Notes under the pieces: model-generated | The model's input: only the letters and a program-made list of their open reading frames with translations | Told to the model about the DNA's origin: nothing | The model's database searches: none | DNA from: Cyanophora paradoxa CCMP329 | Lineage: Eukaryota > Plantae > Glaucophyta | DNA length: 64,000 nucleotides | Direction of reading: 5' to 3' | Assembly: GCA_004431415.1 (NCBI GenBank) | Contig: QPMI01000518.1 | Coordinates: forward strand, 24,796-88,795 | Translations under genes and position numbers: made by a program | Shown: in pieces, positions 23,497-57,820 of the stretch | Position numbering within the stretch: the stretch's first letter is position 1 | Layout of the letters: each line of letters begins with the position of its first letter

Positions 23497-23562
23497 CTTT
23501 AAACTTGCAATGCCGGATTCCGGTCCGGATCTTTAAACTTGCAATGCCGGATTCCGGTCCGG
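23497..23562. repeat. 32-bp direct repeat (34-bp period) abutting the left end of element 1
   Basis: ctttaaacttgcaatgccggattccggtccgg occurs at 23497-23528 and 23531-23562. Confidence 0.9.
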
Positions 23563-23565
23563 TCC

Positions 23566-23660
23566 ACACATATTGAAAAACGAATTTAAATCCCTCGTTC
23601 ATCTCGATCGCTTCGCGATCTCGATTCACTCTGGATTTAAATTCGTTTTTCAATATGTGT
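23566..23660. other. 95-nt terminal hairpin, left end (mirror copy at 49875-49969)
   Basis: Perfect 28-bp outer stem (23566-23593 / 23633-23660), a 12-position mixed segment, a 6-bp inner stem GATCGC/GCGATC and a 3-nt loop. Confidence 0.95.
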
Positions 23661-23984
23661 TAATTTAATACTAAAATACATATTTATCGATTAATTTCTT
23701 TAACTTTTTATGCAAACTTTGTATAAATTAATGCAAACTTTGTATTAAAAATGATAAACGCGTTTAATTTAATGCATATTCACGATTGATTCAATCGATA
23801 TTATATCGATAGATTATGTTCTTTGTCGATTACATATATAACTTCGATTGATTAACATTAAACTACTTAAAGAACGATATAATCGCGATTAATTCGCATA
23901 AATTCGCATAAATTCGCATAAACTCGATATATCTCATCGGTATTGAAGTAGACCACCGCCCATTTTGTATCGGAAAACGCAAAA

Positions 23985-24240
23985 ACTGTCACAGAGTTGC
24001 ATTATGTCCAATTAAACAATCGATGGGATTGCGGATTTACATTTTTGCACCGAAAAAGTGTCACAGAGTTGCATTATCTCCAATTAAACAATCGATTAGA
24101 TTGCGGGATTTTCTATTGGAATATATCGGAACTGCATTATGTCCAATTAAACAATCGATGAGATTGCGGATGTATACTTTTGATCGAAAAAGTGTCACAG
24201 AGTTGCATGGTCTCCAATTGAATAATCGATGAGATTGCAT
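23985..24240. repeat. Four imperfect ~60-70 bp tandem repeats in the TIR (core TTGCATTATGTCCAATTAAACAATCGAT), preceded by (AATTCGCATA)3 at ~23891-23920
   Basis: Visible directly; mirrored at ~49295-49650. Confidence 0.85.
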
Positions 24241-24349
24241 ATGTTCTATAAAACAGAATAAATGAATTCAAGTGTGACAGGTAGTATTCAAATGATATTC
24301 AGTAAGAGATATATTTGTTTTTGAGAAAGTCAGTAAGAGGGGTAGAATG

Positions 24350-24797
24350 TCTGTGACGCCTGTGACGGCTGTGACGCCTGTTTTCAGAAGTCTGTCATTT
24401 TTGAAAATTTTAAAAAGTTTGAAAGTAGGTGTCACAGGCGTCACAGGCGTCACACTCAATTAAATTAGGTGTCACAGCGAAATTGCAGACCATTTCCAGT
24501 AAGACAACTTCGCATTTTCGGAAAGGTGGATTAATGGATAGTGTTTTGTAGGTGTCAGAGGTGTCACAAGACGGATTTCAGTAAGACAAGAATATATTTT
24601 TGAATATCTCAGTAAGAGAAAGAGATTCCATTTTTAATTGGGTGTGACGCCTGTGACGGCTGTGACGGCTGTTTTAAGAAGTCTGTCATTTTTGAAAATT
24701 TTAAAAAGTTTGAAAGTAGGCGTCACAGGCGTCACAGGCGTCACAGGCGTCACAGTCAATTAAAGAGGCGTCACAGTCAATTAAATAGGTGTCACAC
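24350..24797. promoter_or_regulatory. Two iteron-like palindromic units: (GTGACGCCT)3, AT-rich spacer, (AGGCGTCAC)3; putative replication origin
   Basis: Units at ~24350-24455 and ~24642-24797, mirrored in the right TIR (~48740-49185), with a fifth copy at ~39840-39945. Origin function is inferred. Confidence 0.6.
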
Positions 24798-24855
24798 CCG
24801 ATTATCTGACCATTTTCAGTAAGACCATCTGAAATTCTGAATTTCTCAGTGTCAA

Positions 24856-25257
24856 CTAACTCGGAAATCGCAATACTCTATGTTTCTCCGATTTCTCCAA
24901 CCCTGAAAACACACCTGTTATTCTCTCATCTATCTCATGAGATACTCTCGTGGTTTTTCTCTCTGCTTCTAATCCACAACTGAATATATCAATCGCCAAC
25001 ATACCTTCATTTGAGTAACAATGAGCAGTGCAATGGCTCTCATCCAGCAGAAGAACCATTGCAAAACCAGGAGGAGAAATACCACCATCGAAAATCTCGC
25101 AATGCTTGTGAACTACTCGAATACCTTGCTCTTGAATAATAGTTTGCAAGAACTGCATTAACCACCTGGTTGTTGTCTCCAAGTCCTCCATTCCTACTGC
25201 TAATTGGGTTCTGAATTTGTAATCCAGCATCACATGGAAGCCTCGATGAGTATTCAT
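24856..25257 (-). CDS. speD: S-adenosylmethionine decarboxylase proenzyme family (short prokaryotic-type, pyruvoyl-dependent)
   Basis: 133 aa with G.H..LD at the N-terminus, PPGF.MVLLLDESHCTAHCY (ESH self-cleavage site) and AIDIFSCG. Confidence 0.85.
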   Translation of the reverse strand: MNTHRGFHVMLDYKFRTQLAVGMEDLETTTRWLMQFLQTIIQEQGIRVVHKHCEIFDGGISPPGFAMVLLLDESHCTAHCYSNEGMLAIDIFSCGLEAERKTTRVSHEIDERITGVFSGLEKSEKHRVLRFPS

Positions 25258-25297
25258 TTATGAATAATTTAGAAAAATTAAAAACGCGAATGGTAGA

Positions 25298-25447
25298 ATG
25301 CGAACCATCTTAGCAAGAGTGCTACCTTATGAGTTGGTGGATATCATTCTGCTGCACTACCACAAGACCTGTCCCAGCTGCTTTGACACATGCATAATCA
25401 CAAAGGGAAAATGGGGAAAGATTCTCATTTCTCTCTCAAAGATCTAA
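25298..25447 (+). CDS. 49-aa small protein with an F-box-like start and CxxC motif (below the ORF-track cutoff)
   Basis: Hand translation MRTILARVLPYELVDIILLHYHKTCPSCFDTCIITKGKWGKILISLSKI*; it fills the gap between two genes. Confidence 0.45.
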   Translation: MRTILARVLPYELVDIILLHYHKTCPSCFDTCIITKGKWGKILISLSKI

Positions 25448-25716
25448 TCGAAATATAATACTACTGGTTTATCATCTATCACGATTCCTGATGTCGTCTT
25501 TTTTCTATATGCATGAGAGGATTTCTTGTTGCATTCTCTGCATCCACTTCCCCTTACATGATTAAATGGGTAGGTTTGCAGGATCTTGTTGCATTTAAGG
25601 CATCTAACAGAGACCTTCTCTTGTGCTTTCTTATAGACTGTCTCACTATAATCGAATTTAGCATCACCATGAACCATCATTGCAGATTCTATGAATTTCT
25701 TTGTTTTATCATCCAT
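25444..25716 (-). CDS. Stand-alone DUF723-like zinc-ribbon protein
   Basis: FIESAMMVHGDAKFDYSETVY...VRCLKC...P.NHVRGSGCREC matches the repeat unit seen in viral homing-type endonucleases; no nuclease domain is present. Confidence 0.65.
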   Translation of the reverse strand: MDDKTKKFIESAMMVHGDAKFDYSETVYKKAQEKVSVRCLKCNKILQTYPFNHVRGSGCRECNKKSSHAYRKKTTSGIVIDDKPVVLYFD

Positions 25717-25743
25717 CCCTCTCTCTATATATACCTGAGATTT

Positions 25744-26787
25744 CTATGGAGCAGTATCCTGTCCGAAAATGGGGAAGTAGCGATTTGTGCCGTAATATTC
25801 TGCATATGTATTCTGTTTTGCAATAGCATCGGTTCTCTCAGCATAGAGAATGCATTTGTAGATACCAAACCTGGTGGCTCTCACCAAGAACTGGTAATCT
25901 TCAAGACCGAAATTCACTCCATGATATATAATTTATGGGGTTGGGTCATCAATCACATCTGGTTCCTGGTAAAACCCTGTTGTGAAGATATCTGCAACGT
26001 TTACCCCTCGAAGTGCCGAAACAGCTGCTATATCTGTCCTCAGTCCCATAATCATAGTATTGTAAACTCCAACCTCAGTTACAAACAAATCATAGGTAAA
26101 TGTCAAATTGTTATAAACACAATATCCTCGACCGAAATGGTTTGATGCTTGAACAAAGAATAGGTAATTATGACCTGTTTGATTGTTGTTTGCTCTGCAC
26201 ATAGATAGCATTGCTGTGGGAAGCGGAATATTTCTTCTTACTCGATCAGTTCCTGTTATAATAACCAATTCCGAATTTTCAAGAGTGACAGAGGAAGCAA
26301 CATAGAAATGTAGAAAAGGTTGCTGTGCAACTGGTGTATAGAAACGTATTCGTTGGGGATTCTCTACATTTTGTTCAAGAGTATCTGGGACATCATTATA
26401 CGAAACTGATGAAGAGAGTTGTCCTGAAACACGACAACCACCACCAATAAATGCTCCTCCTGATCTCACAGTAACAGCAGCAGAATTCTTATCGAAATCG
26501 AGGGCTTTCAGATCAACACTGTAAGCATCAGGACCTCCATTAGTAGGTTGGAAGAAATTCGCATTTGAGACAAGGAGTCGAGTGGTTTTGACCACACCAG
26601 AATTCTTATCAGCTCTCAGTTCTTTAACTCGAATAATCGAATTTTTATCAAAGGAGTTACCATTGGAATTGGGTCTCTCTGTGGATTCTAAACCACGAAC
26701 TTCATCATTCACTTCATGCTGGCGAAAATGCATTGCAGGGGATCCAAGGGAATATATAGGCAGTTGAACTCGATTATATTCACCCAT
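25744..26787 (-). CDS. Fibre-like protein 3 (shared N-terminal domain, unrelated head); contains an in-frame TAA at 25933-25935
   Basis: The N-terminus IIRVKELRADKNSGVVKTT...NSAAVTVRSGGAFIG is homologous to the two neighbouring genes. The frame stays open for 62 codons after the TAA, up to TAG at 25744-25746. Confidence 0.6.
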
Positions 26788-26822
26788 TGCTTCTTTTACT
26801 AAGAAGGAAAGAAAAATAATGT

Positions 26823-27089
26823 TCATTGCTCTTCTGTGACATTGTTATACTCGATGCCTTTCTTTACAGTTCCCCTTTGGAATGCCTGTAATACAATGGC
26901 TTCCTTTGAGGTTGGTATCTGAACTCCTGCTGAAATACAAGAGTGGATCTCTTTCTGAACAATCTCATCAATTGCAATTCTTGCCCTGTTGTGAACCACA
27001 TTATCAATCCAATCCTGAACAGAAGCAGCGCAATATTCCATTCCCAACTTCTCAATATCAGATAGAACTACTTGGTATATATTTGACAT
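26823..27089 (-). CDS. 88-aa protein resembling small phage tail-fibre-associated proteins
   Basis: MEYCAASVQDWIDNVVHNRARIAIDEIV resembles, from memory, small genes found next to C1q-type fibres in aquatic tailed phages; it lies directly after a C1q fibre gene. Confidence 0.55.
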   Translation of the reverse strand: MSNIYQVVLSDIEKLGMEYCAASVQDWIDNVVHNRARIAIDEIVQKEIHSCISAGVQIPTSKEAIVLQAFQRGTVKKGIEYNNVTEEQ

Positions 27090-27110: not shown

Positions 27111-28130
27111 TTATGTGATACTTAGAAGTTCACCTGTGAAAAGTGTTCTACTTGAATAACTACCTGTGGAACCTGTGACAAGTGTTACATACTCACCAGC
27201 AGGAACATTGATAATTGCACTGAGAGTAAGAGGTTTGGTTGTGATAGTGGAATTAGCTTCTACTGAAATGTTAACTCCATTGGGTAAAAGATTATTTTTC
27301 AGAAAACTAAGACTTATTGCAGCACTTGTTGTTGAATTGGTATATGCTGTAAATCTATAATCACCTGCAACAAGAGCTGTAAACCTTCCATTAGTAACAT
27401 CGAATGACCCTGTATTATTTATCAAAACGGTTGTCCAATTGATCAGAGCGGCTGCACTTGTAGCAACATGAGTATATCCAAGTTGAACAGAAAATCGTGG
27501 CTGAGAAACATATTTTAAATAGCTTGAATTCAGAGTCAAACGATTGGCTTCCAGTGTTGCAAAAAGATCACTGTTACGTTTTAACAGCAGATTAACATCT
27601 GCTCCTGTATCTATTTCAGGAGTGACCACCTTGGTTGATGCTGTTATTATTGATTCTGTGGAATTGGGAATACTAATTCCAGCATTTGCTGTTACCAATC
27701 CTGTAAATGTGCTTGTTCCTGTTATGCTTACTTGATTGGCTGTAAGGGTTCCATCAATCCTTGCCCCATCTCCAATATAAGCGCCTCCACTTCTTACTAC
27801 AAGAGCTGAGTTATTGATGGTGTTGTCAAAGGTAACAATCTTTGGTGTGGTGAACCCTCCCACATCATCATAAATTGCTGAATCTGATACAATCTGACCT
27901 GATTGAACTTGGTTCTTGTTTGAGACTATTAGACCTGTGGTTCTCACCTTGCCTGCATTTCGATCACATCGAATTTCTTTGCATCTGATCACAGAATGTT
28001 GAGAGAATGAATCGGCTCCTGTGGTCTCTGTGCAAATGAAACCTGGGGTAGCATCTGTTACTGTATGGTTGAGTTGATGCAATTTCGGCGCTGCATAACA
28101 GAAAACAGGAACAGCTATTTGTGTAGACAT
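27111..28130 (-). CDS. Fibre-like protein 2 with C-terminal C1q/TNF-like domain
   Basis: Shared N-terminal domain; Thr/Gly-rich shaft; INNTGSFDVTNGRFTALVAGDYRFT...FTGELL C1q signature. Confidence 0.75.
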   Translation of the reverse strand: MSTQIAVPVFCYAAPKLHQLNHTVTDATPGFICTETTGADSFSQHSVIRCKEIRCDRNAGKVRTTGLIVSNKNQVQSGQIVSDSAIYDDVGGFTTPKIVTFDNTINNSALVVRSGGAYIGDGARIDGTLTANQVSITGTSTFTGLVTANAGISIPNSTESIITASTKVVTPEIDTGADVNLLLKRNSDLFATLEANRLTLNSSYLKYVSQPRFSVQLGYTHVATSAAALINWTTVLINNTGSFDVTNGRFTALVAGDYRFTAYTNSTTSAAISLSFLKNNLLPNGVNISVEANSTITTKPLTLSAIINVPAGEYVTLVTGSTGSYSSRTLFTGELLSIT

Positions 28131-28152: not shown

Positions 28153-29211
28153 TTATGTAGCACTTACCAGGTAAACCAACAAGATGTGATTGTTTGGAAA
28201 GTCAATACTACCTAACATACAGTAAATTTGAAGACTGTCTCCCATGGTGAGGGTAATAAGAGCTTCGTAGCACATCTGATTCCTGCTTGATTGACTTGCA
28301 TATGAAAGAATCAGATTTGTATTGTTTCCGTTTATTCTTAGTCCAATCTGGGAGGCAGTTGCAGTAATGTCTTCCGTAATTGTAAAATAGACCCTATAAA
28401 CTCCTGAAACAGGGGCTGTAAATGTTGCTGGATACAGTTTGTCAAAATGACCCTCATTATTCACAAGATATGTTCCAACTGGAAAAGAAAGTGTTGGGGT
28501 GCCGGAACTAACACTTGTTCCAAAAATCTGAGCGTTTGCTTGTTGTCCTGAAATACACATTCTTGGGCAATAGCTGCGTTTAAGACCACTGTTTGTTGGA
28601 AATGTGATTGCTTTCAGATCTGTTATTGTCTTTTCGAGAGTGAAAATGATATCTCCGTTTCGTTTATAATTCACATTTGCATCTGTCCCATTATCCATCT
28701 CAGGTGCATTAACTCTTGTAGTAGCTATTCGAGTAACATAGTTAACATCTCCTGAGAGACCACCATTAAAGGTCATCAATCCTGTGAATACACTTGTCCC
28801 ACTCACATTTAATTGGTTTGCTGTAACAGTTCCTGCTACATTTGCTCCATCTCCAATGTAGGCTCCTCCACTCTTGACTACAAGAGCAGAATTATTACTT
28901 GTGTTACCAAAAGTAACTATCTGAGCTGTGGTAAATCCACCCACATTATCATATATTGCTGAATCGGGGACTACTTGACCCGCTTGAACTTGATTTTTAT
29001 TCGAGATAATAATTCCTGTGGTTCTTATCTTGCCTCCATTTCGATCACAACGAATTTCTTTGACTCTAAGTATATTGTTCTCAGTGAAAGAGGTAATGCT
29101 TGTAGTTTCAGTGCATATATTCCCGGGTGTAGAGTCGACTACTTCATGAGAGGTGCTATGGAGTGATTTGGCTGCAAGTTCATAGTTTGGGATTTCTAAA
29201 AGGGAGGTCAT
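28153..29211 (-). CDS. Fibre-like protein 1 with C-terminal C1q/TNF-like domain
   Basis: Probable start MTSLLEIP after TAAAG; paralogous N-terminus; FTAPVSGVYRVYF...LTMGDSLQI C1q signature. Confidence 0.75.
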   Translation of the reverse strand: MTSLLEIPNYELAAKSLHSTSHEVVDSTPGNICTETTSITSFTENNILRVKEIRCDRNGGKIRTTGIIISNKNQVQAGQVVPDSAIYDNVGGFTTAQIVTFGNTSNNSALVVKSGGAYIGDGANVAGTVTANQLNVSGTSVFTGLMTFNGGLSGDVNYVTRIATTRVNAPEMDNGTDANVNYKRNGDIIFTLEKTITDLKAITFPTNSGLKRSYCPRMCISGQQANAQIFGTSVSSGTPTLSFPVGTYLVNNEGHFDKLYPATFTAPVSGVYRVYFTITEDITATASQIGLRINGNNTNLILSYASQSSRNQMCYEALITLTMGDSLQIYCMLGSIDFPNNHILLVYLVSAT

Positions 29212-32569: not shown

Positions 32570-34111
32570 ATGCCCCTTCGTGTAATTCTCTCATTATCAG
32601 GTGGGGGAGCTCGTGGTATAATTATTACGAGATTGTTAAAAGAAATCGAAACTCGAACAGGAAAAAGAGTAATTGACCTTGTTGATCTGGTGAGTGGAAC
32701 ATCCACTGGTGGGATAATTGCGATTGGTCTCAATGTGAAAAATCCCGAATTTCCAAACGAACCTAAACTTACTGCAACCGATTTGCATTCCACTTATCTC
32801 AATCAACTCCCCTTAATCTTTGCAAATCCCAGAAATATTATTGATAATGCACTTTTCAACACCAAGTATGATGTGACCCCATTGGAGACAGCCATTCTCA
32901 CTGTTACTGGTGAGTCTCTCATTCAAGACTCTCTCAAAGATGTAGTGATCACAAGTTTTGACACTGTGAGTATGAAGCCCATTTTTATCACCAATGATAA
33001 CTCCTACAAATCCATCCCCAGCAAGATTGCTGCAAGATCCACCTCTGCTGCTCCAACATATTTCTCACCTGTGAACTATGATGGGATGTCTCTAATTGAT
33101 GGTGCAATCTCAGGTAACAACAATCCCAGTGTCTGTGGTTACAGTCATGCTAAGAAGATCTATGATGATGATGATGATATTATAGTGATAAGTATATCCT
33201 GTGGTGAAGTCAATGAAACAGATGCTCCAAATGTGGGTTACTCTTATGAAGATGTGAACAGCTGGGGCATCCTCTCTTGGATTGCTTCGACCTCTGGAAG
33301 TCCATTAATCAATATGTTGATGGCTGCAAGTGAACTGTCTGCTCTGGAAAAGATGCAAGAGTTTCTCCCATACAATGATGATCAAGGATATGCAAGATAT
33401 TATAGACTCTCTGTTCCACTTCCAAAGACCATAGTAAACTCTTTGGATGATACCTCTAAAATACCAGATATGATAGATGCAACCGAAATATATATAGCAG
33501 CAAACACTGTGATGATTGATAGACTCTGTGATTTACTGGTTGCAAATTACGAAATCAAGAACCCTGCAAGGTTCTATATATCATCCACTCTGAATAACAT
33601 ACCTCCCATTGATGCTAACTGGTATCTTCTATCAGATGGTGCATTCACTGCTTCATCATCAAAAATTGGAAGGGAGGCATTTAAAGCAAGACCTTCCTTG
33701 ACAGGTTGGGAAGCAAATGCATCTGCTCCTGATGGGATATGGAGTGTTCACACTGAGTATCTCCAAGTAACCTTCCCATACATATTTGAGGTTGCATCTA
33801 TAATTGCATATGGTTCTGGTGTAACAAACGCTTTTATTAAGACCTTCAATGTTGCAACATCACAAGATGGTGTTTCCTGGTCATTTATCAAGTATGAAGG
33901 TGTCAACAGAGTGTTTATGTGTGAAACTATTAATAATGCCCACAACAGTGGTGATGTCTCATACAGTTCTGGGTATCCCACCTCTATTAGAGACGTTTTC
34001 TATATTGGCTACCCTCTGAGGACAAGGTATATTCGAATTTATCCACTTGTATACATCAACACCCCAACTATGAGAGTGGATGTCACAGGTGCATTTATTC
34101 GAAGTGTATGA
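32570..34111 (+). CDS. Patatin-like phospholipase fused to a C-terminal F5/8 type C (discoidin) domain
   Basis: GGGARG, GTSTGG, SAAPTYF and DGA catalytic motifs; C-terminal YLQVTF, SQDGVSW, RYIRIYP and MRVDVTG. Confidence 0.9.
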   Translation: MPLRVILSLSGGGARGIIITRLLKEIETRTGKRVIDLVDLVSGTSTGGIIAIGLNVKNPEFPNEPKLTATDLHSTYLNQLPLIFANPRNIIDNALFNTKYDVTPLETAILTVTGESLIQDSLKDVVITSFDTVSMKPIFITNDNSYKSIPSKIAARSTSAAPTYFSPVNYDGMSLIDGAISGNNNPSVCGYSHAKKIYDDDDDIIVISISCGEVNETDAPNVGYSYEDVNSWGILSWIASTSGSPLINMLMAASELSALEKMQEFLPYNDDQGYARYYRLSVPLPKTIVNSLDDTSKIPDMIDATEIYIAANTVMIDRLCDLLVANYEIKNPARFYISSTLNNIPPIDANWYLLSDGAFTASSSKIGREAFKARPSLTGWEANASAPDGIWSVHTEYLQVTFPYIFEVASIIAYGSGVTNAFIKTFNVATSQDGVSWSFIKYEGVNRVFMCETINNAHNSGDVSYSSGYPTSIRDVFYIGYPLRTRYIRIYPLVYINTPTMRVDVTGAFIRSV

Positions 34112-34577: not shown

Positions 34578-35977
34578 CTATTTCCTCTGCCCTCTTCGTA
34601 GATTGAATCGAGTTTGGGGTGCAGTATATGTTTCTTTGGTGGTTGAAAAGTCATTATACCACCTCTGACTGTTGACTTCTGATAATTTCTGGGTTCCTGC
34701 TATGGTCAACTTCTTTAATTCTTTCTCTACTCTACCCTTCTTTTGTGCTCTTGCTTCTGTGAGGGGTTCTTTTGGTATTTCACTTGCTTTTTCTATGCCC
34801 TCCTTTCTGATTGCTGAATCAACCCTGGCTTCCTCCTTTGCCTGTTCAAGAGCATCCACTGTGGGAGTTTCATGATACTCAACACCTTTAATGGGCAGCA
34901 GTTCATGAAAAGCGAATCTACCATCAACTATCTCACCACTGGGACTTCTGATTCTGAACTTGAAGCCCTCTCTGCCCTCCACACTATAAACAATTCGAGA
35001 CCAATTAACCCCTTGCTTTGCAAATGGATTCTTTTCAACTTTCACTCTCACAAACATTCCAGGTTTCAGGGCATCAAGATACTCAATCGATTTCTTGAAT
35101 CTCTGATCCTCCATATTCACTATCTCTTTGTAGTGGGCTTCTGTGGTCTCTGCTGGTTTTCTCTTGGTTGCAGAGTGAATGGTATTATTATAATTATACT
35201 CAATATCACCCAACACATCAAAAAATCGTGCAGTATTATTTGCAATGCAGTAGTTTGTGATCAATCTCTTGATCTGTCTGTTAAAGGCTTCAATTCGACC
35301 TTGGGTTCTGTGATCTGCAACATCACTTAGTTGATGCTCAATGAATTTTGTTCCCAAATAATCTGTGAACAACACATTGGTAAATTCGCTTCCACTGTCA
35401 CTCTGAATGCGAACAATTGGTCTGGGGACTCTCTGTTCAAGTTGCTTGAATGCTGCAAGTGTAGTAAGAGCACTCTTGTCTCTCATTGGAATTATGAACC
35501 CTGTTCTCAGGGTTGACTCCATTGCACTCATAAATGTATCATAACCATCATTCTGCTTTTTGTATGCAGGAAAGAAGAGCAGATCAATCACATAGGTATC
35601 AAGGGTTGCCTTATTGGAATCATGGGATCTCTCTTTCGAGATAGGGTGGGTGCATTAATCTGGACGACCTCCTGCTTATCATACCACTCTCTCATCTTCT
35701 TGTAGTTCTCCTCTGGTAGTTCCTGTCTCATTGCAGTAAATCCCTTGTAGCCTGTCCTGGGATCATAGAACTTCTTAGCAATCTTCGACTCTTTTGGTGC
35801 TGTCTCAGCTGGGAGGGTCTCTGGGATTAATTGCTTGACCATCTCTGATCTTTTCAATATTCGACTGCTCTTCTCCTCCACTGGAACTGTGATGGGCAGG
35901 ATATTCCCTCGATCTTCAATTGCCTCTTTTCTTACAATTCTGGGTGGTTGTCTCAATCCTATTTGTGTAGAAGGCAT
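34578..35977 (-). CDS. Retroviral-type (rve) DDE integrase, Polinton family; one frameshift at ~35610
   Basis: N-terminal FYDPRTGY...EWYDKQEVVQ; catalytic VIDL, QSDSGSEF and GRIEAFNRQIK; YNNTIHSATKRKP. Adding one A in ATAAGG joins the two ORFs (IPIKATLDTYVIDL). Confidence 0.9.
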
Positions 35978-36160: not shown

Positions 36161-39100
36161 TTAGAGCCCAAATGGAATGCTGTGAATTCCATCGTCTAAT
36201 ATCTTCCTTTTGCTATCGAGTTGGTTTAGAGCCACCCTTCTGCTCTCCAAATCATATAGGTTGTGGTCTTGCCTTCGCTTGTTTACTACTGCTACTGTTT
36301 TGGTGATGCCTTCAAACAGGCATCTCTTGAAATCATCAAAGTGAACCTCTTTGGAGGAAGTCCCAGACATCTTTATTTTATCAAAGGTCTCAGTTCTGAA
36401 AGCATAGAGTTTCGATCTCAGACCTACATACTCCACAATCTTTGCATTTGGAAACTCGTTTTTATATTTACCTGGAATCAAACGATTGCTCCTATCAAAG
36501 AGAGGGTGGGTGGGATCATAATTACTGCAATCCAGGTGTCCAGCAATTCGCTTCATCTCATTATTTAGATCATTGGTATGCAGCAGGAGACAGAAAGAAT
36601 CTGTATCATGGAATAGTAGCTCTGCTGTTTCCCAAGTTCTCCTCACCACATCATAAAAGAACCTGCTATTGTGGAGTTTCGCGAAATCCAGCACAAAAGC
36701 ACCAATTGCAACAGGTTTATCTAAGTGAACATGCTTGGAATACATCTCAAAGGCAACAGCATTTTCGTTTAATACATTGGTTGCCTTGATGAGTGGACTT
36801 GCAGCATATTTCTTGCAAAGTTTCTCACTGTTTGCAATCTTTACCACAGAGCGACCCCTGCATGATTCGAGGCATTTACCATAGATTGCATTGTTCATTA
36901 ATTTAAAGAAGTCACTCTCGAATCTGGACATAGATTGGCGCCTCAGTTTCGTATTTAGATCAATATAACTCTTCATGAATGCAGAGGTTGCAAATGAGAG
37001 AACCCTGTGAACCTTCGTGATTATAATACCTTTGCTCACAAGATAGATCAAGAGAGGTTGGGAAATCACATAGTTATTTTTGGGTGAGAATGTTGCAGTG
37101 AGTTTGGGGTCTTTGCTTATCTTCTCACCTGTGATATCCAGTAACTTTCTTTGATACCCACCAGCATTTCGGTGGTGACATGTTCTTTATTAACTACAAG
37201 TGGAAAATCGTAATGATCTGTGAGAGTTTGTGGGTATTCCAGGTCAACTTCAATAAAGGCACTTCGTCCTTGGGTCTCTTTAAGTGCCTCTGAGACATCT
37301 TCCCATCGAAAATCTCCAATGGGCAGTTCTTGACTGAGAGCAAAACCATACAGATTATTTGCATCCAAGAGAACTATATGGTCATCTGGGTTTTCCACCT
37401 TTGCATATCGAGTAGGCATTGTAGCAAACCCACCTCGAATTGCTCTCTCAATGAATTCGTATTGCCCTACATCACTGATCTGCTCGATCTTTGCTCTGGT
37501 ATAAATGAGCATTGCATCCCAGGATAATCCAGGAGCCGAAACATAGTGGGCAGGATCCAATCCATATTGGGAAAACGCCAATTCTCGGAAAGTCTGGAAT
37601 TTACTCATAAGATCACCAGAATCCACTGCCTGGAAGTCCATGAAGTGCGAAGCATCTATGAATTTCCACATGCCCCATTGCAGGGAGAGGTATTGATCGA
37701 AATTCTTGCTCAGGATCTCAACACGAAGTTTATCATCTTGCTGTGCAATTTTGCGGAATATTTCGTGTCCACATTCATCCATGTGATCCACCACAATTGC
37801 TACTTTCGTTTGCTTTGAGATTCTCCTGTGGAGGTTGCAGTTTCGACATGCTTTCCCAATAAATGCTCCTGATTGATGACAATGGTCTCTCACTGGGAAA
37901 TTCTCATGGGTAAATCGTTCAGCACAGATATAACAGTGTTTAGTGATCTTGTATTGTGCTTTCTGCTCTTCTGTGAGTGGGTGCATTGGAATATTGGTGA
38001 ATAGAGTGCGGATTACTTGGGGTCTGATCTCTGTGAGAGTGGTAAACAGAGCACCAAGTGGATCTGATCCCTCGAAATAATGAGAGATCACCTCATCCCC
38101 CATCACAACTGTTAAAGAAACCGATTTGACCGCTCTTTTACTGCGGTTCTCATCAATTGGAACCGAGTGACTATCCATTTTTACATAGCAGATAGTGGGA
38201 AGCCACACAGTTTTGCGAAGGTGTTGAAGCCCAAATGCAATGTGACTTCCAGATTTCGGGCATTTACCTTTGCTCTCCCTCCAATCAATGCAGCGATTGG
38301 CTTCTAAGTGAATGTCCAGCTTCTCCTGAGTTCTGAAACGAGACAGACAGGTCTCACAGTAATAAATGCGACCATCATGGGCTTTATCAAAGGTGGTTTT
38401 CAGAAGTCTACTCAGAGACATGATGGTGATATAATGCCCTCTATCATCCTCTTCGTTTTCGATTAATAAAAGGTTAATCTTGGTCTTTCTCCTGGGGTTG
38501 CTGGATTGATGGAGAGGATAGAAACACTGTGCTTGATTATCTGCACCATAAATGTTGATTGAGAGTTCAGGGTTCTGCTCCTCAAATCGATCAATAACCT
38601 CTGCATCACAGGCAACTGGAAACTGGATGCCTTCGAAATTGAGTTCGTTTAACCATCTTCTATACTGGCTGGGTTCATTGCTCTTGTGTTTATTAATATC
38701 ATTTCGGTGCAGGTAAGCCAAGATTGCATACTTGAAGCAGTCTTGACCATCAATATTCTTAACATTCACAGTTGCTCTCTTTGATCCAATCCACTCAGGT
38801 GTTGAGAAGAAGCAACCACCCACAGGAGCATAAGACATTATTACCACTCTCAGCATCTCAATGCGATCCAGTCTGTAACTGTCAACCTGCATCATCTGTT
38901 CCTGCATAGATTGAAGGGCATTTCGCAGTTCAACATCAATATTTCGTGATCTTGTGATGACAAAGTAATCACTGTAAATGAATTTGGTGATCCACACCCT
39001 TGGATCACTCACTTTGGTGAATTTACAAATGAAGGTCAACCGAGTTTTAATTGCTCTCAGGTCTTGGAGTTTCTGTCTGAGTCTCTGTGGTAGAGTAGTT

Positions 39101-39441
39101 GCAATTCTCTCCAAGAATTCAATCCCATCTTGGATAACCTCCCCTCTTGCTCGATAGGTCAACCAAGAATATGCTTTGTTCATTGCTTCCCCATCTTCAA
39201 TCTCTGGTGCAATCGCTCCCAACCTTAAACCTTCATCCCTGAATTCCTCCATTTTCTCAAAACGATCATACAGTCGATTTGTAATTTCTGTGAGTTGAGA
39301 TAATCTTGGTCTCCTATCCAGGATTGCTGCCTGGCGATCATATTCGAATTCTGTAATATCACCAGTAACTAAAAGGGTTCCTAAAAGACCGAGTATTTCG
39401 TTTTTCTTTTCTTTGATGATTCTATTTGATTGGCGGGGCAT
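36161..39441 (-). CDS. polB: Protein-primed family B DNA polymerase (pPolB) with degenerate exonuclease domain; one frameshift at ~37160
   Basis: DANNLYG, KLMNNAIYGK, HDTDS and GLRSKLY polymerase motifs; RDHCH..G..C..CN zinc module; N-terminal CFKYAIL...GHY protease-like region after VGG. Confidence 0.92.
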
Positions 39442-39689: not shown

Positions 39690-39834
39690 TTTCTGTCTTA
39701 GTCAAGTGAAATACGCAACCATCCCTTAAATCGCCAGTCAATTTTTGTCACAACACAACGATTTTCGATACGTTTTTATATTGTCCGATTAAGAATCGAA
39801 ACAGTCATCGACCCACAGGGGGCGTCTGTGGTTA

Positions 39835-39972
39835 ATTGGGTGTGACGCCTGTGACGCCTGTGACACCTGTTTTCAGAGGTTTGTAGATTTTTGAAATTTT
39901 AAAAAGTTTGAAAGCAGGCGTCACAGGCGTCACAGGCGTCACACTCAATTAAAAAGGTGTCACAGCTGTCAC
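39835..39972. promoter_or_regulatory. Internal copy of the TIR iteron palindrome immediately downstream of the primase-helicase gene
   Basis: gtgacgcctgtgacgcctgtgacacct...aggcgtcacaggcgtcacaggcgtcac, with a spacer similar but not identical to the TIR units. Confidence 0.7.
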
Positions 39973-40041: not shown

Positions 40042-42403
40042 TTACTCATCCCCACCTTCAACATCACTGTCATCCACCAACTTGCGACTATGCTTCTTTT
40101 TGATCCCAAAGTAGCCACGAGCAAGAACACCATTGACTCGCTTTCTCTCAGCCTTCACATTAAAGACTTCGCGAAGTCTCTTCAAGATAGTGCATTCTGT
40201 GATTTTCTCATCAGATTTGCCCATGTGATCTATCTTAAAGTGACTGATAATGGACTCACTTGTGGCGAAATCCCCTTGACTCTTGGTGAGTTCATAACTC
40301 TCACGAATCCATTCTCCAATCTTGTCATTCTCATTGAAATATTCAACACCTTGATCAACAATGGACTGGGGTGGTTTGGTGACGAATTCATTGAGAGAAT
40401 GGGTTCTCCACATTTCCAGGAGAATGGACATATGCGCCATTTTATAATCGTCATCATTCTTCATTAGGCGCATGAGAGTGGTGTCTGCTTTCTTCTCACC
40501 AGGCTGAGGATCGACCTTGAAGACATTTTCGAATCGGTAGTAGATAATTCGCCTTTGAATTGCTGCATCTGGTTTACTGATTCCCAAGTTGTCATTTGTG
40601 GACAAGAACAACTGGAACATGGGAATGAATGTAACAAGATCTTTGAAAAGAGCTCGAACCTTCATCTCATTCCCACCAGTAACCTGTTTGATTTTGTTCA
40701 GTTGAAGCATATCACCATCTTCTGCTTCATTACTGAAAACAATTCGTTTACCAAGAATGCAAGCGAGTTCTGGGGAAGCCTCTGACGAACTCTTCTTGGG
40801 TTTAGTCCAATATGTCATGTCCAGTGACCCATAATACTCACCAAATGTGTCTTTCACCAACTCTTGGAGCAGTGATTTCCCATTTGCTCCAATTCCAGTC
40901 CAGCAAGTGTATCTCTGATTTTCTGTCAAACCACTCAGGGCATAGGCAATTAATCCCATCATAAATTCGCGGTTTTCATCAGATTCGATAATATCTGCAT
41001 AGATGGATTTAATCTTCGCAACTTTCTCTTGGTCAATTTCTGTGGTGTAATCGTAGCCAACAGTCTTACTCACCATATCATCTGGGAGTCCCTGTCGAAA
41101 AGTCATGGAGTTCAGGTCAAACACACCATTTGTAAATCCAATGATGTTGGGAACAGTATCAAGTCTCTCGAAAAAGGTCTTGTCACTGAACAGAACTGAA
41201 AGATCAGACATAAGTGCAGTTCTGTATGTAGTCTGTTTGAGGCTCTTAGCAATTCCAGCAGAATCTTTGACCTTTCCTCCAAGGAATTGCGGTTCTCTTC
41301 ATCACGAAGTGCTCTCTGTGCGAGTTGAACAGAACGTTGAAGATAAACTGGACAGACCTTGCAGCTCAAACAGAGAAAGATTCGCTTCCCAGTTTCATCC
41401 ATCTCCCAAATCCCACATACATCATTGAACTTGAACCAGGTCTTGTTGGAATACTTGTATTTGTCTTGCAGAACAAGATAGGCAACCTGTGCAACATCAT
41501 AATGGGCACCATCAGATCCAGCAGACCGATCAATCAGATTTTCGATCTTCACATCTGTCTCTTCCTTCACACGAACTGTGATGCTTCGCTTTTTGCAGTT
41601 TGCACTGTAACTCGAAACAATATATTTGTCCTTCTCCTTCCCTTGAACAATATACCAATTGTTCGAGTCATGGCTTCCCTTGCAGCAGGGACAGATCAGA
41701 CCTTTGTTCTCAGCAGTGAAATTGTATCCCATCTTGGTCTCATTGATGATTGTGGGCAAGATGAAACCGAATTCTTCGAGTTTAGAAAGAATATGTTTCT
41801 GCAAATTCTCCTCAGCGCACCTTGCATAATAAGAATGTGCACCTTTGGGGAATTCGTAGTTTTCAACAATCCACTTTTGCAACTCAGCAGTGGGTTCATT
41901 TAACTCACACTCAGATGCCCATGGCTCTCTGATCCATGTTTTGTTGGGACTGGGACAAACATTAATTACCCAGCAGTCCCAGTGGATGCAATCGTTTTGC
42001 AGTCGATCTTGGGGTTTCCTTTGAATGCACCTGCTTTATCCCAGATCTTAATGGTGTCGAATTCAGCAGGTCGAGCGAAATAAGCATGATATCCTTTTTT
42101 GGTTTTAGCAAGTGGATTAACACCACCGAAATCATCAGGGAATTGCTCCTCGAATTTGGCGAAATCCTCCTCTTGGTCGAAGTCAATAACCATGATATTA
42201 CGAGCAAGAATGCCCCAAGCAGTATATTTACCGGATTTCAGGGCTTCATCGAATTTATCCCAAGTCCAGGATCCGTCTTTATGAGCGAAAAGCGGTCTCT
42301 TGGTATCAGGATCAACAGGAATTACGAGATTCTCAGACAGGACATCGTCTTCACGAAGCCAGTCAACAAGGCGTTTCAGGGATTTCTTGGCGGCAGCGTT
42401 CAT
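40042..42403 (-). CDS. PrimPol (bifunctional primase-polymerase) + Zn finger + D5-like SF3 helicase; frameshifts at ~41970 and ~41255
   Basis: VIPV...KRP, IMVIDFD and KTKKGYHAYF (AEP motifs); CPCCKGSH; IGFTNGVFDL; WTGIGANGKS Walker A; IKQVTGG and RALF. A single added G in each of two G runs restores one ~790-aa frame. Confidence 0.9.
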
Positions 42404-44892: not shown

Positions 44893-46290
44893 TTACAGAT
44901 TAATGCGACGAAGACCATCTTTGTCAACAATAATGAAACTGTGCATGAGAGCACGAACATTAACTGTGATTGTCTGGTCAGAAGGCATGTATAGAGTAAG
45001 GAAAGAAGAGGAGGAGTTCGTGAGATCAACATAGCCAGACTGGGCAATGTTGCGAATCGCTTTCTCTCCATCAACACAGAATGGTAGACCACTGAGGACA
45101 TATTTGTCTGCAACCTTGTCCATATTTGAGCACTTGAAGGCATCCGCAATTAATTCGGCACCTTTGAGGAGAGGGATGGGCTCAGTAGCATAGAGACGTT
45201 GACCATTAATTTCAACAGTGAAAGTAATGTCTTTTGAGTTAGCATGCGTTTTTAGGACACTGTGGGAACCATTGAAACCATCAATACCTGCGGCATCACG
45301 AACTGAAACAAGAAGACCATAGACAAGACCAGAGATCTGTGACAGGTTAATACGATTTGGTTGAGCATTGCCTTTTGCAGCAAAATTGACACTGTCAACA
45401 AAACCAATATCCAGAGCAGGAATAGCCATACCAGTGGTCTTCACCTTCTCAATGACAGTAGCAAACAGTTCATCAGAAACATTAATAGCATGCATGTAAA
45501 GACGAGGAGAAGTGACTTTAATTTCGGGGGTTGTTCCAGAGATGGTGAAAGTGGTGATCTGTTGACCAACATGGGCAAGAGTAGCATTAGCAGTAGCACC
45601 AAGTCCATCATCCTCTGTCTTATCAGCAGCTGTTCCACCAACAACTGGAAGAGCACGACCACCATAAGAAGTCTCAACATAACCCTTTCCAGCATCCTTG
45701 AACCAGACAGTCACCACCATTTCTCCTGTGAGAGCACCAAGAGGGAGGTAGTGGTTTAGCCATGGGACGGGGATTTCAACAAAGAATGACCCACCAAGTC
45801 GGTTGGTTCCATGGGCAGGGATACCATGAACCATACCCATTGAACGCTTCTTCTTGGCGAGTTGATCCTCACTGTAATAGATAAGAGGGAAATGAGCAAG
45901 GAAATCAGAAGGCACATGGAAAGTGTAAGATCCATAGGTGATTTCAAGTCGAGAGACAAGAGCACCAACTGGGCGAACGTATCCATTGCGAACAAGGTCG
46001 GTATCACCAGCAAAAGTGACAGCTGGAAGGTCAAACGCAAGTTCGAGTTTTCCACAGAAATTGTAGCGAGGGAGCTTGAAAGAAATGCGATTTCCAGCAT
46101 TATTCTCGAAAGTGTTGCTTGGGTTCACAACAACAAGAACTGGCTTCGACTTGGATTCAAGACCAAGCATGAGAGAGTTGTCCAGGAAGAACGCCTTGGC
46201 TTCTTCCGGGTTGTTAGAGCTTCTTTCAGAGAAAGACGTTGGAGGGTCGAAGTAATATCCATGATTATCTCTTTTATTATACTGCAACAT
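44893..46290 (-). CDS. Major capsid protein (double jelly-roll, PLV type); true start may be the ATG at 46262 with a frameshift at ~46208
   Basis: ~460 aa, beta-rich, between penton and ATPase; ISFKLPR...ALVSRLEITYG pattern. The alternative N-terminus MDITSTLQRLSLKEALTT matches LKELLTT of the element 2 MCP. Confidence 0.75.
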   Translation of the reverse strand: MLQYNKRDNHGYYFDPPTSFSERSSNNPEEAKAFFLDNSLMLGLESKSKPVLVVVNPSNTFENNAGNRISFKLPRYNFCGKLELAFDLPAVTFAGDTDLVRNGYVRPVGALVSRLEITYGSYTFHVPSDFLAHFPLIYYSEDQLAKKKRSMGMVHGIPAHGTNRLGGSFFVEIPVPWLNHYLPLGALTGEMVVTVWFKDAGKGYVETSYGGRALPVVGGTAADKTEDDGLGATANATLAHVGQQITTFTISGTTPEIKVTSPRLYMHAINVSDELFATVIEKVKTTGMAIPALDIGFVDSVNFAAKGNAQPNRINLSQISGLVYGLLVSVRDAAGIDGFNGSHSVLKTHANSKDITFTVEINGQRLYATEPIPLLKGAELIADAFKCSNMDKVADKYVLSGLPFCVDGEKAIRNIAQSGYVDLTNSSSSFLTLYMPSDQTITVNVRALMHSFIIVDKDGLRRINL

Positions 46291-48585: not shown

Positions 48586-49969
48586 ACGAGAGTATCTCAT
48601 GAGATAGATGAGAGAATAACAGGTGTGTTTTCAGGGTTGGAGAAATCGGAGAAACATAGAGTATTGCGATTTCCGAGTTAGTTGACACTGAGAAATTCAG
48701 AATTTCAGATGGTCTTACTGAAAATGGTCAGATAATCGGGTGTGACACCTATTTAATTGACTGTGACGCCTCTTTAATTGACTGTGACGCCTGTGACGCC
48801 TGTGACGCCTGTGACGCCTACTTTCAAACTTTTTAAAATTTTCAAAAATGACAGACTTCTTAAAACAGCCGTCACAGCCGTCACAGGCGTCACACCCAAT
48901 TAAAAATGGAATCTCTTTCTCTTACTGAGATATTCAAAAATATATTCTTGTCTTACTGAAATCCGTCTTGTGACACTCTGACACCTACAAAACACTATCC
49001 ATTAATCCACCTTTCCGAAAATGCGAAGTTGTCTTACTGGAAATGGTCTGCAATTTCGCTGTGACACCTAATTTAATTGAGTGTGACGCCTGTGACGCCT
49101 GTGACACCTACTTTCAAACTTTTTAAAATTTTCAAAAATGACAGACTTCTGAAAACAGGCGTCACAGCCGTCACAGGCGTCACAGACATTCTACCCCTCT
49201 TACTGACTTTCTCAAAAACAAATATATCTCTTACTGAATATCATTTGAATACTACCTGTCACACTTGAATTCATTTATTCTGTTTTATAGAACATATGCA
49301 ATCTCATCGATTATTCAATTGGAGACCATGCAACTCTGTGACACTTTTTCGATCAAAAGTATACATCCGCAATCTCATCGATTGTTTAATTGGACATAAT
49401 GCAGTTCCGATATATTCCAATAGAAAATCCGCAATCTAATCGATTGTTTAATTGGAGATAATGCAACTCTGTGACACTTTTTCGGTGCAAAAATGTAAAT
49501 CCGCAATCCCATCGATTGTTTAATTGGACATAATGCAACTCTGTGACAGTTTTTGCGTTTTCCGATACAAAATGGGCGGTGGTCTACTTCAATACCGATG
49601 AGATATATCGAGTTTATGCGAATTTATGCGAATTTATGCGAATTAATCGCGATTATATCGTTCTTTAAGTAGTTTAATGTTAATCAATCGAAGTTATATA
49701 TGTAATCGACAAAGAACATAATCTATCGATATAATATCGATTGAATCAATCGTGAATATGCATTAAATTAAACGCGTTTATCATTTTTAATACAAAGTTT
49801 GCATTAATTTATACAAAGTTTGCATAAAAAGTTAAAGAAATTAATCGATAAATATGTATTTTAGTATTAAATTAACACATATTGAAAAACGAATTTAAAT
49901 CCAGAGTGAATCGAGATCGCGAAGCGATCGAGATGAACGAGGGATTTAAATTCGTTTTTCAATATGTGT
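48586..49969 (-). repeat. Right TIR of element 1 (~1384 bp)
   Basis: Reverse complement of 23566-24951. Confidence 0.95.
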
Positions 49970-50019
49970 CGGTCCTTTCGATGTCTCTTCCAACAACGAG
50001 GCTCCTCCTCGTGTGCGCG

Positions 50020-51347
50020 GCAGCACGCGGAGAAGCTGGGGCGGGACCAGCAGGAGATGTGCGCCGTCGCGCACGGCGTCGCGGATAGCCGCCAGTGGGA
50101 CATGGTGCCCCCGCCCGCCCCCGCCCGCCTCGAGTGCAGCCGCGACCCGACCCGACCGACCCGCGCGGCCCGCCAGATCGTGCAGATGCTCATGATAAAG
50201 CAGCCCGAGTGGATGAGGGTGAGTCGGTGATCACGATACGATAAATTTAAAGCGACCCGGGCCTCCCTCCAGTTATTGTGCGCCGGCCGCGAGCTGAGGG
50301 CCTCGGGCAGGACATCGAGGAGGCGGACCGGCTGACGGGGATGGAGCCGGCCACGTGGGACGACCGCTACAGCATCAACTTCTTCGGGGTGCGGTCGCGC
50401 GCGATCCGCATTGAAGTTTCGGGGCTGTGCGATGCAGTCGCATTCTCCCTCGCGCGCGTCTCGAGCCGGCATGCACGTGCAGGCCCCCGACGACGCCGAG
50501 GAGGCGGAGATCCCCTCCCCCGTCGTCGTTGCGACCCCCAACTCGCGGCCGCGCCGCCCCCTCGGCCCCCAGCCGGCCGCCCGCGTCCTCGCGAGCTACG
50601 GGGCGCCGCCGGCGCCGGCGCGGACGGGGAAGGGGGCGAGGAGGAGGCGCCGGCGACGATGACGGAGGCGGAGTGGAGCGCAATGATCAACGAGCGGATG
50701 AAGAATTCCGTCCTCGCCCTCAGCGTCGTGCGCCGCCCCGCCGGGACGGGCCGTTTGGGCGCCTCCGCGCCGGCTGATGCGCGGGCGCGCCGCGGTGGCA
50801 GCTGGCGGGGGCGAAGGAGGCGGCGGAGAAGGCGCGCGTGAGGTCGCTCACCTGCGAGACGTGCGAGTTCGACAAGCAGCCCGCGCGCAACGCGGCGCGC
50901 CAGAGAGCCATTTTCCCCCCTGCATGTGCATCCTTCAGCCCTCTCCCGTCTGACTGCTACCACTGTACGCTCAGGCGGCGATCGCGAGGCACAAAATGAC
51001 GCCCGCCCACGTGGTGCGCTAGTCGCGGCCGATCCGAACGTCGACTTTCAGCTATAGCTTCTTGAAGCCTTGAATTTCGTTAATATACTATTTTTGCATC
51101 GACTCGAACTGACCCTGGGCGCAGGAGCGGGACCGGTCGTACCGAAAGCTGCTGGCCGACCTCGCCATAATCTGCGAGGATGCCATCGAAGGGTGCGCTG
51201 CGATCGTACACGCGTCCGGCTTGAGTCTCGCATCCCCGTGCAGCCTTGTCGAGCCCCTCGAGCTGTGGATTCGTCGACCCGCACGTGGATTCACACGCGA
51301 GCGCAGGATGCAGGAGACGATAGCGGCGCTGTGCGACCTCGGGGGCC
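50020..51347 (+). CDS. Host TRANK1-like gene, right copy, exons between the two viruses
   Basis: HAEKLGRDQQEM..QWDM, LTCETCEFDKQP and ERDRSYRKLLADLAIICEDA match left-copy exons HGEKLLGDRQEM..QWDM, CDACECKKQP and ERKRLYHKLLLDLASICEDA. Confidence 0.7.
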
Positions 51348-51774
51348 AAAAAAAATGAGAGAGGACCTGATTCTGTGGCCCACCCCTCTTCACCACCCTC
51401 ACCTCTCCGAACCCACCCCAACCCACCCAATCCAGCGTCTTCCCAGCCATCACTCTCGCCAACCCTTCCGCTACGTCTACCGCCCTTCTCTCCCTCTGGT
51501 CTACCTCCCTTCCATCCAGCAACCACTAGGTAGTATCTAACGTCTACTCCAATCGATCTTGCAAAAGATATAGCAGTGATTTGAGACGGGCCCCAACGCG
51601 ACGGTCTGCAGAGATAGCTTAATCAGCAGCTAGGCGTTAATACTGTGTTCTTCCTATCTAAATAGCGGAGAGGTTTCCAGGTTCTAGCTAGACGATAAAA
51701 CTATATAATCGAAGCTGATTGCATATGCGAGTTTAGGTTCTAGTTAGTCAATAATACTGTGTGGATGATAGCGC
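51348..51774 (+). repeat. Left TIR of element 2 (~427 bp), starting with an A run
   Basis: Reverse complement of 61996-62417 with a few small indels. Confidence 0.93.
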
Positions 51775-51850
51775 AGTAGCAATGTTGAAGATTTGGACAG
51801 GAAGTCCTAAAAAACGAAAGATCGAGAGATGTTGAAGATTTGGACAGAAA

Positions 51851-52255
51851 GTATAGTAATGTAGACGAGCTTCTATGCGCTGGCATAAAAGTATAGTAAT
51901 GTAGACGAGCTTCTATGCGCTGGCATAAAAGTATAGTAATGTAGACGAGCTTCTATGCGCTGGCATAAAAGTATAGTAATGTAGACGAGCTTCTATGCGC
52001 TGGCATAAAAGTATAGTAATGTAGACGAGCTTCTATGCGCTGGCATAAAAGTATAGTAATGTAGACGAGCTTCTATGCGCTGGCATAAAAGTGATAGTGC
52101 GCTGATAGTGCGCTGATAGTGCGCTGATAGTGCGCTGATAGCTAGCCGGAGACAAGCCGGAGACAAGCCCGAGACAAGCCTGTGCCAAGCCGGATCCCGG
52201 AGACCAAGCCCGAGCCAAGCCGTCAAGCCAATCGTTACAGGCATCGTTACAGGCA
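51851..52255. repeat. Subterminal tandem array: 6 x 40 bp, then ~4 x 11 bp (TGATAGTGCGC), ~3 x 11 bp (GCCGGAGACAA) and 2 x 12 bp
   Basis: gtatagtaatgtagacgagcttctatgcgctggcataaaa starts at 51851, 51891, 51931, 51971, 52011 and 52051. Confidence 0.95.
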
Positions 52256-52370
52256 TTCACTCCCAGCGATGCCGGAGCCCTAGCTTAGTGAAGCGCTCAG
52301 CATTGGCTTGTACTCGATCGCCGGCCCGACAGGATCAGCACTGCTAGAGGCGATGCGCAGGATCGATGCG

Positions 52371-57811: not shown

Positions 57812-57820
57812 CTTTGTAAA

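Follow-up and report, generated by a model that had tools for sequence, protein, structure and literature searches.

A SpeD-type pyruvoyl decarboxylase gene of predicted arginine specificity reaches into the terminal inverted repeat of an integrated Polinton-like element

Phages and giant viruses are known to carry polyamine genes, but such genes have not been discussed for Polinton-like viruses (PLVs). Among the SpeD homologs, the available text of PMC10407285 describes a group (SpeDA) that decarboxylates only L-arginine and forms one highly supported clade with six tested members, from Ca. Poseidoniales, marine group II/III, Gimesia maris, Solirubrobacter, Nannochloropsis gaditana and Tribonema minus. 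There, the Poseidoniales, marine group II/III and Solirubrobacter proteins did not complement a speD deletion, and in G. maris the gene is followed immediately by speY. SpeY enzymes in turn use agmatine, according to the accessible part of PMC13625781 (2026). On the viral side, the SpeD proteins of Synechococcus phage S-PM2 and Thermus phage phiYS40 are both proven S-adenosylmethionine decarboxylases (AdoMetDCs), as stated in the available sections of PMC9992855. Here we examine a SpeD-like gene carried by an integrated element of the Polinton/PLV type in a 64,000-nt stretch of Cyanophora paradoxa CCMP329 DNA (contig QPMI01000518.1, positions 24,796 to 88,795; hereafter the window), in which the 3' end of the gene lies within a terminal inverted repeat (TIR).

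The presence of the Pfam domain PF02675 in PLVs is already on record. In the part of Supplementary Table S6 of PMC12220804 (2025) considered here, PF02675 is counted 66 times for 156 elements of Glaucocystophyceae, 45 times for 706 elements of Rhodomonas lacustris, 17 times for 57 elements of Cryptomonas pyrenoidifera and 10 times for 177 elements of Cryptomonas borealis, with zero in the 17 other rows of that part. These counts, from glaucophytes and three cryptophyte species, remove the novelty in PLVs that the initial annotation of the window had entertained. The main text of the same paper, in its available form, contains no occurrence of decarboxylase, polyamine, adenosylmethionine, AdoMet or PF02675. 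Our literature search returned no paper joining polinton-like viruses with S-adenosylmethionine decarboxylase or polyamine, and the papers on virophages or polintons and decarboxylases that we checked either concerned other decarboxylases or had virophages only in the reference list. What is new here is the assignment to an arginine-decarboxylase subfamily, the giant-virus relatives, the overlap with the TIR and a hint of transcription.

The open reading frame (ORF) is full length, with 133 codons (402 nt) from an ATG start to a TAG stop, and its product passes the Pfam model PF02675 (AdoMet_dc) with 43.1 bits (cut-off 25; E 6e-11). The best match to a solved structure is the AdoMetDC of Thermotoga maritima (E 4e-4). 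Alignment with 1tlu (T. maritima S63, H68, C83) places the cleavage site at E73-S74 and equates H79 with His68 and C94 with Cys83, so that the motifs 'LLDESH' (E73-S74-H75), H79 and 'DIFSCG' (C94) are all in place. In an alignment of 71 sequences D72, S74, H79, Y81 and C94 are invariant, and an AlphaFold2 (AF2) model built from the same alignment reached a pLDDT of 93.8; the top five Foldseek matches were AdoMetDCs of T. maritima and Aquifex (including 1vr7, 2iii and 1tlu; TM 0.69–0.79). Sequence and model together indicate an intact gene for a pyruvoyl enzyme with the class-1b SpeD fold, whose self-cleavage is predicted between E73 and S74. The initial annotation had read the locus as a SpeD-type pyruvoyl decarboxylase with intact ESH and DIFSCG motifs and had proposed a profile search to check it; both the reading and the profile match hold.

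Family membership does not carry the AdoMetDC label with it. The protein falls short of the NCBIfam equivalog model for AdoMetDC, TIGR03330 (42.1 bits vs a cut-off of 75.65), and its relatives are few: a word-indexed search gave 54 matches, and among 1.84 billion representatives just 295 come in at E 1e-3 or better. No match at E 1e-3 was obtained when the protein was compared by tblastn with 50,697 phage records, and phage SpeD was reached only when a more typical subfamily member was used as query. All 243 motif stretches in the 254 proteins that we fetched read SPPGF...LLDESH...AHCY(S/A). A Pro at the H-x-x-P-E (HTWPE) position was absent from every one of these stretches (0/243) and from the locus-encoded homologs (0/48), the window protein having Ser82 there. 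For comparison we assembled 13 bona-fide-like sequences, comprising the S-PM2 and phiYS40 SpeD, two annotated phage SpeD, and weaker PF02675 homologs of Planctomycetaceae genomes; 12 of them, S-PM2 included, have H(T/S)(W/Y/F)PE with the Pro. Four signature residues present in the window protein, F65, D72, Y81 and F131, recur in 52–53 of 53 subfamily rows, while the 7 bona-fide-like rows aligned with them have V, A/S, W and G or a gap; Asp72 immediately precedes the Glu-Ser cleavage site.

The cellular members of the subfamily point to arginine. A homolog lies directly upstream of a gene of the deoxyhypusine-synthase family (speY) at five loci, three from Thermoplasmatota and Poseidoniales (L021, L035, L036), one from Pirellulales (L038) and one from Planctomycetaceae (L042); at a further locus, L040, it is not upstream of speY. 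Each of the five genomes behind L035–L038 and L040 has one PF02675 gene, and spermidine synthase was found in none of these incomplete metagenome-assembled genomes (0/5), by a search that detected it in 10 of 14 known genomes. Among the same five, an arginase-family gene is present in all three archaea and agmatine deiminase in both planctomycetes. Because the cellular subfamily members match proven SpeDA by taxon, synteny and pathway context, we predict that the window gene encodes an L-arginine decarboxylase of the SpeDA type and not an S-adenosylmethionine decarboxylase, with a probability of roughly 0.6. Together with the low TIGR03330 score, this match leaves the AdoMetDC identity that the initial annotation had taken as default without support, and with it the idea that the enzyme may drain S-adenosylmethionine (SAM), arginine being the predicted substrate instead. 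The initial annotation did allow for homologs that use arginine or ornithine.

On this prediction, self-cleavage of the proenzyme between Glu73 and Ser74 would convert Ser74 into the pyruvoyl cofactor, assisted by the catalytic residues His79 and Cys94. Inside the host cell the mature enzyme would turn arginine into agmatine, from which enzymes of the host or of a helper virus would likely produce putrescine and higher polyamines. These polyamines may support translation and DNA condensation while the element, or a giant virus infecting the same cell, replicates.

To place the gene among its homologs, we built a quick tree of 180 rows and a careful maximum-likelihood tree of 60 rows, the latter after removal of rows more than 80% identical and with phiYS40 omitted for its long branch; the two trees agree. 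The 7 bona-fide-like rows split off at a starred branch (100/94) of the 60-row tree. When the tree is rooted on them, planctomycete sequences come first, followed by a starred branch (100/98) to archaeal sequences (Poseidoniales/Thermoplasmatota) and, beyond these, by a starred group (100/98) of 35 viral and eukaryote-like sequences that includes the window. Within it, the window belongs to a starred set of 8 rows (95/86) with P0001, P0175, P0002, P0004, P0005, L018 and L019.

Several points weigh against arginine as the substrate. In an approximately unbiased (AU) test, joining the 8-row set to the bona-fide-like rows was not rejected (log-likelihood difference 9.3, p 0.19), and therefore the root inside the subfamily and the phylogenetic bracketing are not secure. 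The tree was made without the experimentally characterised SpeDA proteins, which are linked to it by taxon names, synteny and pathway context, and without the Algavirales AdoMetDC sequences, which group with bona fide enzymes in the published tree (PMC9992855, available sections). The window protein is about 40% identical to its archaeal relatives, and no agmatine-using gene (speY, speB, aguA/aguB) was found among the ORFs of the element by Pfam. While the accessible text of PMC10407285 has a single Pro separating bona fide AdoMetDC from arginine decarboxylases, we infer from the legend of its Fig. 8 that the Pro of HTWPE is the one meant, and phiYS40 SpeD, a proven AdoMetDC, does without it.

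Should the product instead be a true AdoMetDC, it would supply decarboxylated AdoMet to a host spermidine synthase or lower SAM. The name and fold of the Pfam family agree with such an enzyme, phiYS40 illustrates that AdoMetDC activity is possible without the Pro, the AU test allows the clade of the window as first branch beside the bona fide enzymes, and Algavirales carry proven class-1b AdoMetDC, sometimes without spermidine synthase (PMC9992855, available sections), a further point against arginine. As the initial annotation had noted, no spermidine synthase is visible in the element; a Pfam search of its ORFs yielded neither this gene nor any further one of polyamine metabolism. We nevertheless hold AdoMetDC activity to be unlikely, given a score under the TIGR03330 cut-off, the lack of HTWPE in the 243 motif stretches and the 48 locus-encoded homologs, and four signature residues, Asp72 among them, that are all held in common with speY-linked cellular proteins and none with the 7 bona-fide-like rows.

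The substrate could also be a different amino acid, such as ornithine or lysine, or the role could lie outside polyamine synthesis, for instance arginine depletion or agmatine signalling in virus-virus competition. SpeD homologs have switched substrate several times (PMC10407285, available text), the viral and eukaryote-like part of the tree stands behind starred branches of length 2.75 and, nested, 0.73, and no downstream pathway gene was found in the element by Pfam. Yet in the same text arginine alone was used by all six tested members (6/6) of the corresponding published clade, and the ornithine enzymes form a separate single clade with diagnostic residues of their own, and we consider a substrate or role of this kind improbable.

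Further arrangements were observed among the relatives. Among metagenome proteins (P0110, P0113, P0241 and P0243), some are tandem fusions of two SpeD-like subfamily domains, for example P0110 with 328 aa and about 150 bits for each domain, and many others have N-terminal extensions of 60–100 aa, as if eukaryotic and targeted. In two Planctomycetaceae genomes (G021 and G108; loci L066 and L069), a homolog of the LLDESH subfamily and one of the HTWPE type, both PF02675, form a tandem pair, which recalls the paired speD/speDA genes described in the available text of PMC10407285.

Predicted to act on arginine, the window protein has its nearest relatives (45–50% identity) on giant-virus contigs. 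L018 (50% identity, 62% GC) encodes a D5 helicase as well as a major capsid protein of nucleocytoplasmic large DNA viruses (NCLDV; Pfam E 9e-64). The other two contigs, L019 and L020 (45–47% identity), have 57% GC, and genes for Erv1/Alr, RNase III, a D5 helicase and a GH46 chitosanase lie on L020. In another viral clade, likewise starred (100/97), giant-virus contigs (L003, a GVMAG record; L005, with an RNA polymerase subunit; and L028) are joined with small AT-rich contigs (L002, L030/L031 and L016) that encode AEP primase-helicases, an A32 ATPase, collagen-like proteins and a capsid candidate. A gene near-identical to that of L028 lies on L029, where it adjoins an ATG8 homolog and ankyrin repeats. 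As far as these sequences can tell, small virus-like elements carry the gene on at least two branches, each beside giant-virus copies, and the window gene has common ancestry with the copies on giant-virus contigs.

The GC content of the gene (41.3%) equals that of the unique part of the element (41.0%), and we conclude on this ground that it is an old resident of this element lineage and not a recent arrival. By the same comparison we dismissed the host and the GC-rich giant-virus contigs as recent sources of the gene.

The overlap with the TIR, which the initial annotation had put at the last 32 or so codons with a duplicate at the right end, amounts to 31 codons and the stop. The inner edge of the left TIR falls after codon 102, so that codons 1–102 are unique sequence and codons 103–133 with the stop (96 nt) are TIR sequence. 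By tblastn, residues 103–133 recur at 48586-48678 with 100% identity; the right-hand copy is a 3' remnant only, without the catalytic part. The nearly invariant R130-F131 of the 71-sequence alignment is encoded within the TIR, and homologs from quite different contexts can be aligned through the TIR-encoded C-terminus. Since homologs outside TIR elements have this conserved C-terminus too, it would appear that the TIR took in gene sequence, rather than that the gene ran into an old non-coding repeat. Most likely, the TIR boundary shifted inward and thereby copied the 3' end of the gene to the other terminus.

A hint of transcription comes from three sequencing runs (X16–X18) that are only guessed to be RNA, no run being on record as such. 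Their assemblies amount to 13–26 million letters and cover 10–11 of the 30 bins of a 20-kb stretch, vs 30 of 30 for the DNA run X1, and the parts of the element left uncovered in X16–X18 are no evidence of silence. Contigs of the three runs span 24825-25910, 24825-25184 and 24825-25506. Compared with the window, these contigs have one difference in the 402-nt ORF (25033, third base of codon 75, synonymous) and 21 in the adjacent 653 nt (Fisher p 5e-4). This pattern is consistent with a conserved, transcribed SpeD-like gene in another copy of the element; gene conversion near the TIR or carry-over of DNA in the libraries would give the same pattern.

The same data bear on whether the gene has any present function, or is a decaying passenger in a dead copy of the element. 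The polymerase and primase-helicase genes of this copy are split, the DNA run X1 has 1-base insertions at 32076, 37160, 41254, 41968 and 42866 that coincide with the split polymerase/primase-helicase regions, and no packaging ATPase was found in the element. The insertions reflect either decay of this copy or (homopolymer) assembly errors, and the apparent frameshifts may accordingly be artefacts. Against decay, the SpeD-like ORF is full length with every conserved residue kept, the other copy departs from it by one synonymous change in 402 nt vs 21 changes in the next 653 nt, and the contigs of the guessed-RNA runs cover it. We regard a dead gene as very unlikely.

In all three guessed-RNA runs a contig also covers part of the polymerase ORF, at 37400-37985, with a depth of 13–17. 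In X16 and X17 this contig passes at 37963 into GC-rich sequence that does not resemble the element, as if a piece of the polymerase gene lay within a host transcript or locus.

Speculatively, and with considerable doubt, the predicted arginine decarboxylase might be expressed from the integrated element without a giant-virus attack, so that the provirus gives its host an arginine-to-agmatine step, a eukaryotic counterpart of lysogenic conversion, with the gene being traded between giant viruses and the small viruses parasitising them in at least two separate lineages.

The element itself is a low-GC island (23566-49969; 26,404 bp), with 71.5% GC in the left flank and about 71% in the surroundings. 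Its features are collected in Table 1. The TIR was detected in three pieces that adjoin or overlap, all of them 100% complementary and together 1386 nt, and CGGTCC directly outside both ends fits a target-site duplication from integration. The island is thus an integrated insertion. Like the initial annotation, which had described a 26-kb Polinton-like virus, we class it as a Polinton/PLV-type element, its capsid module being unproven.

Table 1. Features of the integrated element and its SpeD-like gene (positions in the window)
Feature	Position	Strand	Remarks
SpeD-family (PF02675) pyruvoyl decarboxylase gene	24856..25257	-	133 aa
SpeD-like gene 3' end, last 31 codons + stop	24856..24951	-	inside left TIR
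Copy of SpeD-like 3' end (residues 103-133 + stop)	48586..48681	+	right TIR inner edge
Left TIR	23566..24951	.	1386 nt, 35% GC, several tandem-repeat arrays
Right TIR	48586..49969	.	100% complementary to left arm
Left target-site duplication CGGTCC, 6 bp	23560..23565	.	
Right target-site duplication CGGTCC, 6 bp	49970..49975	.	
Three adjacent paralogs	25933-26826, 27111-28130, 28153-29211		N-terminal domain of ~130 aa in common, 34-50% identity
Fibre-like protein, 885 aa	29231..31888	-	weak PTR + H_lectin matches
Patatin-like phospholipase fused to discoidin (F5/8 type C) domain	32570..34111	+	Pfam
Possible rve-type integrase	34578..35531	-	weak Pfam rve, E 0.003, 18.2 bits vs cut-off 32.6
Protein-primed family B DNA polymerase, Endonuclease VII-like insert	36161..39441	-	DNA_pol_B_2 22.7 vs 25.8 (below cut-off)
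D5-type primase-helicase region, three ORFs	40042..42403	-	D5_N + DUF5906 above cut-offs
Candidate major capsid protein, lead only	44893..46290	-	language-model neighbours

The polymerase is divided into ORFs 37117-39441 and 36161-36976, the downstream one with a DTDS motif. A Prim-Pol match in the primase-helicase region narrowly misses its cut-off (22.5 vs 22.8), and the only Walker A motif that a six-frame scan found in the element is that of the D5 helicase. The capsid candidate has one database relative, a EukProt protein of 59% identity. Its neighbours in a language-model search are Capsid_N/Capsid_NCLDV clusters at 0.97–0.98, with low recognition; its AF2 model, from a two-sequence alignment, has a pLDDT of 32, and profile comparisons were not significant (hhalign E 0.07 with NCLDV capsid, 0.18 with the capsid candidate of L002). 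Neither a packaging ATPase (FtsK/A32-type) nor a maturation protease was found in the element, with Pfam matches considered up to E 5 and a six-frame Walker A scan. Two of the three paralogs end in C1q domains and the third has only the common N-terminal domain; they are probably host-recognition spikes. According to PMC12220804, one PLV of Cyanophora paradoxa encodes a PTR-PTR-H_lectin protein and PLVs of Glaucocystophyceae have a discoidin-patatin fusion, and the match of the fibre-like protein and of the patatin-discoidin fusion to these PLVs suggests a glaucophyte host. A search of the window for tRNAs gave none. Upstream of the 22 ORFs examined no shared promoter motif emerged; TCTA occurs in 8 of the 22 upstream regions, that of speD included, vs 14% of background 60-mers, a signal too weak to use.

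Repeats mark the ends of the element and the DNA next to them. Host DNA just left of the insertion (23497-23562) contains a 34-nt tandem duplication ending in the CGGTCC target site. Within the TIR, at 23981-24238 and 24351-24796 and mirrored in the right TIR, lie a 72-nt tandem array with 3.8 copies and, in addition, several arrays built from a 9-nt unit (GTGACGCCT-like); a related copy of 112–124 nt is found inside the element at 39830-39955. A second TIR-bounded element (51342-62425; about 11.1 kb, 48% GC) begins 1.4 kb to the right of the first. Its TIRs are about 430 nt long (51342-51774 and 61996-62425), and it encodes a protein-primed PolB of 1140 aa (58445-61867, minus strand), which contains an Endonuclease VII insert and a zinc finger and is 28–30% identical to the polymerase of the first element.

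If the SpeD-like gene does encode an arginine decarboxylase, the AdoMetDC label given by databases would be wrong for PLV, giant-virus and many algal copies, and these small viruses would act on arginine and agmatine, not on SAM. Elements of glaucophytes and of some cryptophytes commonly contain the gene, giant-virus contigs bear relatives of it, and transcription from the integrated state is possible. These three properties make it a workable case for asking what use a metabolic gene has to a virus that depends on another virus, though no new kind of system is opened by the finding.

How, then, does the locus compare with described systems? The PF02675-bearing PLVs of PMC12220804 are the same kind of host element, with the same PTR and H_lectin fibre and the same patatin-discoidin fusion, but the domain is counted there without substrate, phylogeny, TIR overlap or expression. 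The AdoMetDCs of Algavirales and cyanophages (HaV01, YSLPV2 and S-PM2, in the available sections of PMC9992855) are likewise virus-borne, small SpeD proteins of the prokaryote type, with the fold and the Ser, His and Cys residues of the window protein. They differ in that A/S precedes Glu-Ser, and HTWPE is present, in S-PM2 and 11 other bona-fide-like sequences, in that the starred 100/94 branch parts the bona-fide-like rows from the subfamily of the window, and in that the window protein fails TIGR03330. In Chlorovirus PBCV-1, an algal virus cited in PMC10407285 and PMC9992855, polyamine synthesis likewise starts with the conversion of arginine to agmatine; the virus does this with a pyridoxal-phosphate (PLP)-dependent arginine decarboxylase of the unrelated alanine-racemase fold, accompanied by downstream enzymes (leading to homospermidine), whereas the window has a pyruvoyl enzyme alone. 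From SpeDA clade 1 of PMC10407285 the window copy differs in residing on a eukaryotic virus-like element without speY, speB or aguA. The small class-1b fold and the processing residues are the same in both, the Poseidoniales and Planctomycetota relatives identified here have LLDESH, F65, Y81 and F131 in common with the window protein, and these cellular relatives resemble the published genes in adjoining speY, in an agmatine route and in a spermidine synthase that was not found.

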